Below are positions 1-852 of a stretch of 852 bases of DNA, piece after piece (the first letter of the stretch is position 1; each line of letters starts with the position of its first letter). The notes beneath the pieces were generated by a model. That model was not told where the DNA came from and made no database searches. It saw only the letters and a list, made by a program, of their open reading frames with translations. A program made the position numbers and the translations under genes. The DNA comes from Escherichia coli. GTDB lineage: Bacteria; Pseudomonadota; Gammaproteobacteria; Enterobacterales; Enterobacteriaceae. Where the stretch lies: the NCBI RefSeq assembly GCF_003334335.1, contig NZ_QOWQ01000144.1; one strand, written 5' to 3'.

Positions 1-64
1 GCGTCACGAAATGTCACGACATGTCACGGCGTGTCACTACGTGGTCACATTGATGTCACGACGG
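1..64 (+). repeat. Iteron array A: 6 direct copies of core GTCAC(GAC) at 10-11 bp spacing; may continue upstream of the window
   Basis: GTCAC occurs at 3-7, 13-17, 23-27, 33-37, 44-48 and 55-59, with spacings 10, 10, 10, 11, 11. Extended copies are gtcacgaa, gtcacgac, gtcacggc, gtcactac, gtcacatt, gtcacgac, all in the same orientation. Confidence 0.75.
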
Positions 65-852
65 AAGATTTAGCAAGTGCGCTTGATGTGACGGAAGACG
101 TAATTGATTCAATTTTGCATGCAATGCAGGGGCGGGTTCTGGATGGTGACCTTATTTCCGGATGGGAAAAACGTCAGGTGCTGAAAGAGGACAATGGTAA
201 CGTTTCGCAAACGGCAAAATCCCCGGCAGAGCGCAAGAGAGCGCAGCGGGAGCGCGAAAAGCTGCGGAAATATGATGCTGATTGTCACGATGAGTCACGA
301 CGTGTCACGCATCTGTCACGACAAGTCACGACAGATAAAGATACAGATACAGAATTAAACCCCACACATAACGCGCGCATGCGCGAGAGTGCTCCAACCG
401 GTGAGTCGCATGGTGCGCCGTTGCAGACAGCCGAACCTGAATACCTGGACGGCCTGAGCGAACCGATCGGGAAATTTTCGATGACTACTGTCTGGCAGCC
501 GTCGTCGGATTTTCGACAACGGGCAGCAGTGTGGGGTATGGCTCTGCCTGAGCCGGAATTTACACCTGCTGAGCTTGCCGCATTCCGGGATTACTGGATG
601 GCGGAGGGGAAGGTTTTCACACAGGTTCAGTGGGAGCAGAAATTTGCCCGCCACGTGCAGCACGTCAGGACACAGGTAAAACCAGTCAGCAAGGGGGTAA
701 GCCATGCAGCATCAGGTGGCACGGCATCACGGGCAGTTCAGGAAATCCGGGCAGCACGCGAACAGTGGGAACGAGACAACGGATTTATCAGCAACGGAAA
801 TGGCCTGGAAGCTGTGGGAGCTTATGGGGGAGGTGTATTCGAACCGCTGGAC
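1..852 (+). CDS. Replication initiator / replisome-organizer protein with DnaT-like C-terminal domain; internal fragment, 5' and 3' ends both outside the window
   Basis: Frame 1 (codons at 1, 4, 7...) has no stop across all 852 nt, while frames 2 and 3 carry stops in the first 110 nt (e.g. TGA 51-53, TAG 71-73, TGA 84-86, TAA 101-103). Residues encoded by about nt 466-672 (GKFSMTTVWQPSSDFRQRAAVWGMALPEPEFTPAELAAFRDYWMAEGKVFTQVQWEQKFARHVQHVR) share the motif string W-Q-P-x-x-D-F ... A-x-W-G-x-A-L ... E-L-A-x-F-x-x-Y-W-x-A-E-G-K-V-F-x-x-V-Q-W-x-Q-K-x-A-R that I recall from the C-terminal domain of E. coli DnaT. The N-terminal two-thirds does not resemble chromosomal DnaT and contains the iteron arrays, as expected for an initiator whose origin lies inside its own gene. 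Homology is from memory, not a search. Confidence 0.8.
281..333 (+). repeat. Iteron array B: 5 direct copies of core GTCACGAC at 10-11 bp spacing
   Basis: GTCAC occurs at 284-288, 294-298, 304-308, 315-319 and 325-329, with spacings 10, 10, 11, 10. Extended copies are gtcacgat, gtcacgac, gtcacgca, gtcacgac, gtcacgac, in the same orientation as array A. Confidence 0.75.
333..360. other. AT-rich tract with AGATA(C/A) x3 tandem; candidate DNA-unwinding element
   Basis: agataaagatacagatacagaattaaac has 21 of 28 A/T, in a window that is otherwise GC-balanced. AGATA starts at 333, 339 and 345. It lies immediately 3' of iteron array B. Confidence 0.4.
374..385. repeat. Perfect 12-bp palindrome CGCGCATGCGCG
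   Basis: cgcgca|tgcgcg is its own reverse complement. It is an alternating GC-rich run about 14 bp downstream of the AT-rich tract. The function is unknown; it also encodes part of the linker (A-R-M-R-E). Confidence 0.6.

Follow-up and report, generated by a model that had tools for sequence, protein, structure and literature searches.

An 852-nt stretch of Escherichia coli DNA, referred to below as the window, raises the question of why a protein-coding sequence should carry two blocks of a short direct repeat at about one copy per helical turn. The window (1..852, + strand) spans codons 43-326 of a 345-codon gene, its base 1 being the first base of codon 43. Frame 1 is open through all 852 nt and equals the annotated frame of the coding sequence (CDS), and E. 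coli JE86-ST05 has a CDS that includes the sequence of the window at 100% identity. The gene is an annotated CDS at positions 7875-8912 of locus L001, between a YdaT gene and a gene named 'replication protein P', and in an E. coli prophage it takes the place that O has in lambda. Our answer to the question is that both arrays, an inverted copy of their core at 87-92 and an AT-rich tract at 331-360 likely constitute a replication origin embedded in its own initiator gene, within a lambdoid prophage, and that the protein encoded by this gene probably binds the repeats. An origin with iterons is the best reading because the repeats are under a dual constraint, because the gene lies in the O position beside a lambda-P-like gene, and because an AT-rich tract follows the second array.

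Within the window, GTCACGAC with at most one mismatch is matched 10 times in 852 nt against 0.98 expected, a count reached in 0 of 200 shuffles. The + strand contains 11 copies of the 5-mer GTCAC, all of them within the two blocks, and Tandem Repeats Finder reports a period of 10 in each. Array 1 (2..62, + strand) consists of six direct (T)GTCAC(G) cores, which start at 3, 13, 23, 33, 44 and 55, in steps of 10, 10, 10, 11 and 11 nt, and encodes SRNVTTCHGVSLRGHIDVT. Array 2 (283..332, + strand) consists of five direct (T/A)GTCACG cores starting at 284, 294, 304, 315 and 325, in steps of 10, 10, 11 and 10 nt, and encodes CHDESRRVTHLSRQVT. Both lie within the CDS of the initiator gene, ~230 bp apart, and inspection of the upstream gene sequence revealed no continuation of the array 5' of the window. 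Iterons are expected as at least three direct repeats in regular phase, and here there are 11 direct cores in 10-11 nt steps. These counts bear out the first-pass annotation of the window, which had described eleven direct copies in two blocks at 10-11 nt spacing. It had also taken the repeating unit to be an 8-mer; the repeats themselves stand, and the unit is shorter, as the core conserved across homologues is an asymmetric (T)GTCACG of 6-7 nt and the last two bases of the 8-mer vary. A partial dyad (GTC..GAC) within the 8-mer was discounted, since these final two bases are variable among relatives.

The feature also extends further than the two arrays to which it was first confined. The inverted core copy on the - strand (87..92; TGTGAC on the + strand, GTCACA on the - strand) encodes part of 'LDVT' and begins 33 nt downstream of where the last direct copy of array 1 starts, and the AT-rich tract at 331-360 had likewise been omitted. 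A second inverted GTGAC, at 146-150 (within GGTGACC, encoding 'DGD'), is not conserved in relatives and is probably a chance occurrence. We also considered a structured RNA or DNA hairpin and rejected it, as the array regions fold no better than shuffled sequence (z = 0.8, -0.2 and -0.4); a search of Rfam at a permissive threshold gave no match. A promoter scan returned a single weak minus-strand match inside array 2, near the shuffled level (1 versus a mean of 0.5).

Frame and sequence inspection further agrees with the first-pass description of how the repeats sit in the gene: core copies occupy all three codon phases with frame 1 open throughout, and GTCACGAC contains no stop triplet in any + strand phase. 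To see what is conserved, we turn to 49 distinct genes from IMG/VR contigs as a sample of close relatives. In all 49, the GTCAC(G) cores are invariant in every codon phase, while the 4-5 nt spacers between them are variable; in array 2, for example, some close relatives carry TGTCACGATGAGTCACGACGTGTCACGCATCTGTCACG and others TGTCACGGCGCGTCACGAAATGTCACGCACATGTCACG. Copy number shifts by an in-frame 21-nt indel, equivalent to two units or seven codons, and close relatives have four copies in array 1. Codon usage was then compared in nine diverged GTCACG-type genes (from E. coli, Aeromonas and Pseudomonas phages, and metagenomes), with the array zones set by protein landmarks only and not by GTCAC matches, which avoids circularity. 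Valine is encoded by GTC at 31/42 positions in the array zones and 42/164 elsewhere in the genes (p = 1.4e-8), threonine by ACG at 33/46 versus 27/126 (p = 3.7e-9), serine by TCA at 14/20 versus 37/166 (p = 3.1e-5), and histidine by CAC at 26/28 versus 36/61 (p = 1.1e-3).

This codon locking bears directly on whether the pattern could be a peptide repeat maintained at the protein level (SRNVT and CH..SR motifs), or a tandem repeat prone to slippage, with the DNA playing no part as a site. Many representatives do conserve the peptides SRNVT(R)GH and CHxxSRNVT, and the in-frame 21-nt indels would suit such a repeat. However, a period of 10-11 nt is not a multiple of 3, so that one and the same core is read as V-T, S-R or x-H, and it is the cores rather than the spacer bases that stay constant. 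Array 2, moreover, encodes a disordered linker, where conservation at the protein level is unexpected, and the inverted copy co-varies with the direct ones. Above all, codon choice is fixed far more tightly than the encoded residues demand: a peptide repeat cannot account for the locking because it is the synonymous choice that is fixed, at GTC, ACG, TCA and CAC. We therefore regard a purely protein-level or slippage origin of the pattern as highly improbable. The comparison of synonymous sites among homologues, which the first-pass annotation had put forward as a check, thus came out with codons locked at p values from 1e-3 to 4e-9. Together with invariant cores among variable spacers and with joint core changes that track the N-terminal domain of the protein (see below), it supports the proposal of a simultaneous constraint on the repeats, at the DNA level and as coding sequence.

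The same layout recurs well beyond close relatives. From 177 loci with DNA available, we obtained 47 non-redundant ones (E. coli, Aeromonas, Pseudomonas, Ralstonia and metagenomes), and 44/47 carry the two arrays, with 10- or 11-nt steps, at the same gene positions. Across the family, 191 steps are of 10 nt and 65 of 11 nt. The usual layout in GTCACG-type genes has four direct copies (gene positions 129, 139, 149 and 160), an inverted copy at 193, where most of these relatives have CGTGAC, and a second cluster of three to five direct copies at gene positions ~387-430; the gene of the window, with 6+5 direct copies, is an expanded version of it. Individual relatives depart from this plan in various ways. 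Three GTCACG clusters are present in L124 and in L096 (1501-2670; P0189), in the latter at gene positions 139-160, 366-428 and 514-553. In L099 (1501-2382; P0241), three inverted CGTGAC copies ('NVTNVTNVT') lie among the direct ones of an enlarged array 1, and the hairpin-coding insert is much longer as a result. Escherichia phage 204576 (L088, ~1800-2000; unannotated in its record) has a frameshift between the arrays, both of which are intact.

The core sequence, in turn, differs between subfamilies. GTCACG is found in phages of E. coli, Aeromonas and Pseudomonas, while other genes have CGAACG (L092, L097), GTAACG (L093), (A/T)AACGCA (L084), a mixture of GTAACG and GTGACG (L085), or GCAACG, the last in Ralstonia phage Hennie, which encodes a protein with no more than 33% identity in the N-terminal region. 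Core type is always identical between both arrays of a gene, and the peptide signatures of arrays 1 and 2 agree in 121/134 family representatives. The inverted copy changes along with the core, being CGTTAC in L085 and CGTTGC in the GCAACG-type Ralstonia phage. The phase of the steps may be constrained by core type as well: GTAACG includes TAA in one phase, so that two successive 10-nt steps would make an in-frame stop, and in the one clean GTAACG-type locus examined (L093), the steps run 10 then 11, and 11 then 10. GTCACG arrays make free use of all three phases.

Which protein reads these cores is suggested by what remains constant around them. GTCACG genes adjoin a lambda-P-like gene (L001, L095, L099), a DnaB helicase gene (L094), a primase-helicase gene (L087) or a DUF977/LygF gene (L082, L181). 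With neighbor gene and C-terminal domain both varying, the sole constant partner of the core is the N-terminal domain, and since the core tracks this domain alone, the pattern is how iterons and their initiator should behave. Each of five core types goes with its own subfamily of N-terminal domain, with the caveat of shared descent. Binding by some protein other than the product of this gene, for instance a host factor or a further regulator of the prophage, would fit with a canonical recognition helix that, in sequence and models, looks unsuited to DNA reading. We nevertheless find it quite improbable, as the core follows the N-terminal subfamily across Escherichia, Pseudomonas and Ralstonia while neighbors and C-terminal domains are swapped freely, and a host factor would leave unexplained why cores differ within enterobacterial prophages (L001 versus L084).

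Directly 3' of the last core of array 2 lies the AT-rich, A-strand-biased tract (331..360, + strand), composed of ACAGAT(A/C)A repeats and presumed to be a DNA unwinding element. Its GC content of 0.27 is the regional minimum, and Tandem Repeats Finder detects a hexamer repeat covering 331-353. Among near-identical genes (L002-L081), the number of ACAGAT(A/C)A units ranges from ~2 to 9, always in frame, and this variation alters the length of an encoded D-K/T-D linker; similar GATAAA/GATACA tracts are present in relatives. On sequence, the repeats are thus adjoined by an AT-rich candidate unwinding element, as iteron origins are. The tract also marks a boundary between modules. Among partial E. 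coli matches, DUF1376-type initiator genes match window positions 328/335-852 with up to 96% identity, and CFT073-type genes match only 23/32-353. Because the partial matches begin or end there, we interpret the tract at 331-353 as a crossover between an N-domain/iteron module and a C-domain module. One DUF1376-type initiator (E. coli O103:H2 12009, L180 810-880) has the same tract and C-terminal domain with repeats of its own upstream: two direct copies of GTTCAAACA, separated by 34 nt, and a third, inverted copy lie just before the shared tract. Downstream of the tract in the window is a perfect 12-bp GC-rich palindrome, CGCGCATGCGCG (374..385), which encodes part of a conserved 'NPTHNARMRES' and has a terminator-like hairpin score on the minus strand. 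Lambda likewise has a palindrome beyond its AT tract.

The domains of the encoded protein were judged from AlphaFold (AF2) models of the full-length protein and of the N-terminal domain alone. The N-terminal domain is predicted at residues 1-100 with a predicted local distance difference test score (pLDDT) >90, followed by a disordered linker at ~140-184 (pLDDT <50 for residues 140-150) and a confidently predicted DnaT-like domain at residues ~200-270. Array 1 encodes residues 44-62, which form a predicted beta-hairpin (E47-50/E53-56, pLDDT ~83) between helices of the N-terminal domain, and array 2 with the AT tract encodes the start of the disordered linker. A fold search with the N-terminal domain model suggests a winged-helix fold, with DnaD-NTD and a RepA_N plasmid initiator as the nearest matches. 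The models also predict a basic helix at residues 117-135 (AERKRAQREREKLRK; 223..279, + strand), which is a candidate DNA-reading element. It carries the motif E-R-x-[RK]-x-x-R, in which R120 and R125 are invariant, and residues 121/124 differ with the core type, K/Q going with GTCACG, V/Y with GTAACG and A/W with CGAACG. This correspondence suggests that the basic helix helps to read the core, with 121/124 as a possible specificity code, a hypothesis that is confounded by descent.

The DnaT-like domain (475..672, + strand) matches Pfam PF17948 at residues 201-266 and presumably provides a contact surface for single-stranded DNA (ssDNA) or for the P-like partner. A sequence search of the Protein Data Bank (PDB) recovers DnaT chains with E values from 1e-19 to 1e-21, and Foldseek with the full-length model, a search dominated by the DnaT domain, returns 4ou6 and 6aeq. 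The match to NCBIfam NF002770 (93.9 bits versus a cut-off of 201) covers the C-terminal domain only, and the protein is not a full-length DnaT equivalog. All relatives having a DnaT-like domain (5/5) have a lambda-P-like neighbor, and other helicases or loaders adjoin the gene in four examined relatives without this domain. The pairing of the DnaT-like domain with a lambda-P-like neighbor is consistent with loader recruitment through the C-terminal domain, as occurs in lambda.

Taken together, these features lead us to propose, by analogy with lambda O/oriλ (PMC7466680) and SPP1 gp38/oriL (PMC6316719), the following sequence of events at the putative origin. The N-terminal part of the protein, comprising the putative DnaD-like winged-helix domain and the basic helix, would bind each GTCACG core. 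With cores spaced at 10-11 bp, bound subunits would align along one face of the DNA, an arrangement suggested by the mean family-wide step of 10.26 nt. The complex on array 2 may then destabilize the adjoining AT tract, after which the C-terminal DnaT-like domain would recruit the lambda-P-like protein along with host DnaB. Together with the inverted copy, array 1 would serve as an auxiliary cluster, which either raises the local concentration of initiator or stabilizes a higher-order complex.

Several observations weigh against this proposal. Neither a DnaA box (at most one mismatch, or TTWTNCACA) nor an IHF consensus is found in L001 7800-8600, and the AT tract is short, at ~30 bp. The canonical winged-helix recognition helix (residues 74-84) is acidic and variable, which makes the identity of the DNA-reading element uncertain. 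A scan of the full protein gives only the DnaT family PF17948, leaving the N-terminal domain (residues 1-135) without any Pfam match, and for this reason DNA binding by that domain is something we infer. All of the co-variation evidence is, to some degree, confounded by shared descent. Our literature search found no paper on the family and no experimental study of any member, with older work thinly covered and a prior description possible. Finally, array 1 is absent in a minority of relatives (L089; P0255, P0262, P0265) that keep array 2.

This last observation bears on the role of array 1 in particular. As a few relatives keep array 2 without array 1, array 2 and the AT tract are the more universal part, and array 1 may not be essential. 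Such a distribution is also what one would expect if the repeats were initiator-binding sites chiefly for control, acting in autoregulation of the operon, in titration or handcuffing, or in incompatibility, a reading that we hold possible but doubtful. In a milder form, the origin would consist of array 2 and the AT tract only, with array 1 as a control or auxiliary site, to which P1 incA and the P4 crr region are comparable. The distance of ~230 bp between array 1 and the AT tract, the inverted copy that array 1 has to itself, and the presence of three clusters in L096 and L124 are all consistent with a control function, as is the finding that distal extra iterons of Stx phages are weakly bound yet needed (PMC7466680). 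On the other hand, array 1 is at a fixed place in 44/47 non-redundant relatives, with its core changing together with that of array 2, and no promoter-like site is associated with it. A control function, moreover, overlaps with that of an origin inside the initiator gene and does not exclude it.

A more elaborate version of the origin reading, which we advance tentatively and consider unlikely as a whole, is that one stretch of DNA both supplies the binding sites and encodes part of the protein reading them, with the cores nucleating a one-face oligomer, arrays held in register being bridged, ~230 bp being wrapped and the AT tract being opened. Under such a scheme, a change in an iteron would rewrite the protein simultaneously, array 1 altering a surface beta-hairpin and array 2 the linker beside the basic helix, and basic helices, with 121/124 setting specificity, would enter successive major grooves. 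The helical phase between the arrays is non-uniform over 20 geometry classes spanning 179-278 nt (R ~0.53, Rayleigh p ~0.002), classes that are not independent, and for the six core types alone, R is ~0.5 and not significant. Because gain and loss of copies preserve phase trivially, we do not rely on this result, and conservation of helical register between the arrays is suggestive only.

Returning to the setting of the gene, the lambdoid prophage that carries it has its insertion adjoining yccA. Its genes run in the order integrase, exonuclease, dicB, a divergent repressor-like gene, a cro-like regulator, the YdaT gene in the cII position, the initiator gene, 'replication protein P', nin-region genes and Q, and L001 thus presents the lambda-type arrangement of origin-like repeats in the O-position gene with a P-type gene next to it. 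PF06992 is detected in the neighbor gene of relatives. The protein itself is assigned to 'replication initiation protein' families in PHROG, and family members are named 'phage replisome organizer' or 'DnaT-like ssDNA-binding domain-containing protein' at NCBI. Matches to the gene are present in 867/5,426 complete E. coli genomes, O157:H7 strains among them, and clustering at 50% gives 1,884 representatives of the N-terminal 160 residues, in phages of several proteobacterial genera. Within the nin region of L001 (10719-13260), several genes are annotated as frameshifted or truncated pseudogenes and the initiator gene is intact, and this prophage may be defective despite the intact initiator gene. 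One cluster of 153 member initiator sequences (P0056) bears the source label 'pyocin large subunit, partial', which is probably a misannotation.

The family offers a natural case of overlapping DNA-site and protein-coding constraints. Its natural specificity classes (GTCACG, GTAACG, CGAACG, GCAACG and AACGCA), combined with a candidate two-residue code, would allow specificity swaps to be designed, and the layout may be of use for annotating prophage origins and for predicting replication incompatibility among co-resident prophages.

Among known systems, a close parallel in organization is lambda, in which oriλ lies inside the O gene and the iterons are 19-bp imperfect inverted repeats in a single array in the interdomain region (PMC7466680). 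The putative origin in the window likewise falls within the gene of its initiator, which has the corresponding place in the early right operon, with direct repeats followed by an AT-rich tract. In both, iterons pair with the N-terminal portion of the protein, and the C-terminal portion pairs with the P-type helicase loader gene that follows. Stx phages have six iterons, the extra ones adding 13 aa in frame to O (PMC7466680), and extra iterons in the window's family similarly lengthen the protein in frame, by 7 aa. Unlike the 19-bp dyads of lambda, however, the cores in the window are 6-7 nt, asymmetric and placed one per helical turn, a contrast that the first-pass annotation had drawn correctly (PMC7466680). 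The gene of the window also differs in having two arrays ~230 bp apart, one of them within the coding sequence of the folded N-terminal domain, and the Pfam scan of the full protein does not detect the lambda O N-terminal family, of which the protein is not a member.

A second parallel is the replisome organizer gp38 of SPP1, which binds direct repeats inside its own gene 38 (oriL), beside an AT-rich unwinding element (PMC6316719). Here, too, the repeats lie within the gene of the putative initiator, the NCBI label is 'phage replisome organizer', and the modeled N-terminal domain may resemble DnaD-NTD in fold. Residues 1-135 have no sequence match to the Pfam replisome-organizer N-terminal family, and membership of the window protein among replisome organizers is only suggested by fold. 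The two systems differ in hosts and partner proteins, and SPP1 has a second origin-like site elsewhere in its genome rather than a second array in the same gene.

With respect to the repeats themselves, the origins of the SaPI elements (staphylococcal pathogenicity islands) offer a further comparison: they have penta- or hexanucleotide iterons, six to twelve per origin, that are read by a winged-helix domain, and they include an AT-rich region (PMC9371898). Short iterons, a winged-helix reader (here a putative one) and an AT-rich region are thus common to both. Of the design envisaged in the first pass, the iteron and origin reading has strong comparative support, and the one-face filament and the looping between the blocks are proposals. 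The sites are of a less unusual kind than the first pass suggested, given the SaPI precedent (PMC9371898). SaPI iterons differ in lying downstream of rep, where they flank an AT-rich center in opposite directions, and the SaPI initiator is itself a helicase.

In iteron plasmids (RepE, pi, TrfA and RepA), as is proposed for the window, winged-helix initiators bind direct-repeat arrays that are replicon-specific and adjoin an AT-rich unwinding element. Their iterons, at 17-22 bp, are spaced about two helical turns apart and are usually outside the rep gene. Two separate clusters of short iterons are known from P4, where alpha binds octamers in both ori and crr and both clusters are needed in cis; the P4 clusters are kilobases apart, alpha is a primase-helicase, and the protein families are unrelated. 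Our literature search, which left most older subscription papers outside its reach, returned no description of a two-cluster, in-gene layout with one site per turn. An origin embedded in the initiator gene is textbook knowledge for lambda, and the two-cluster, one-site-per-turn layout described here is a widespread version of that already known design.

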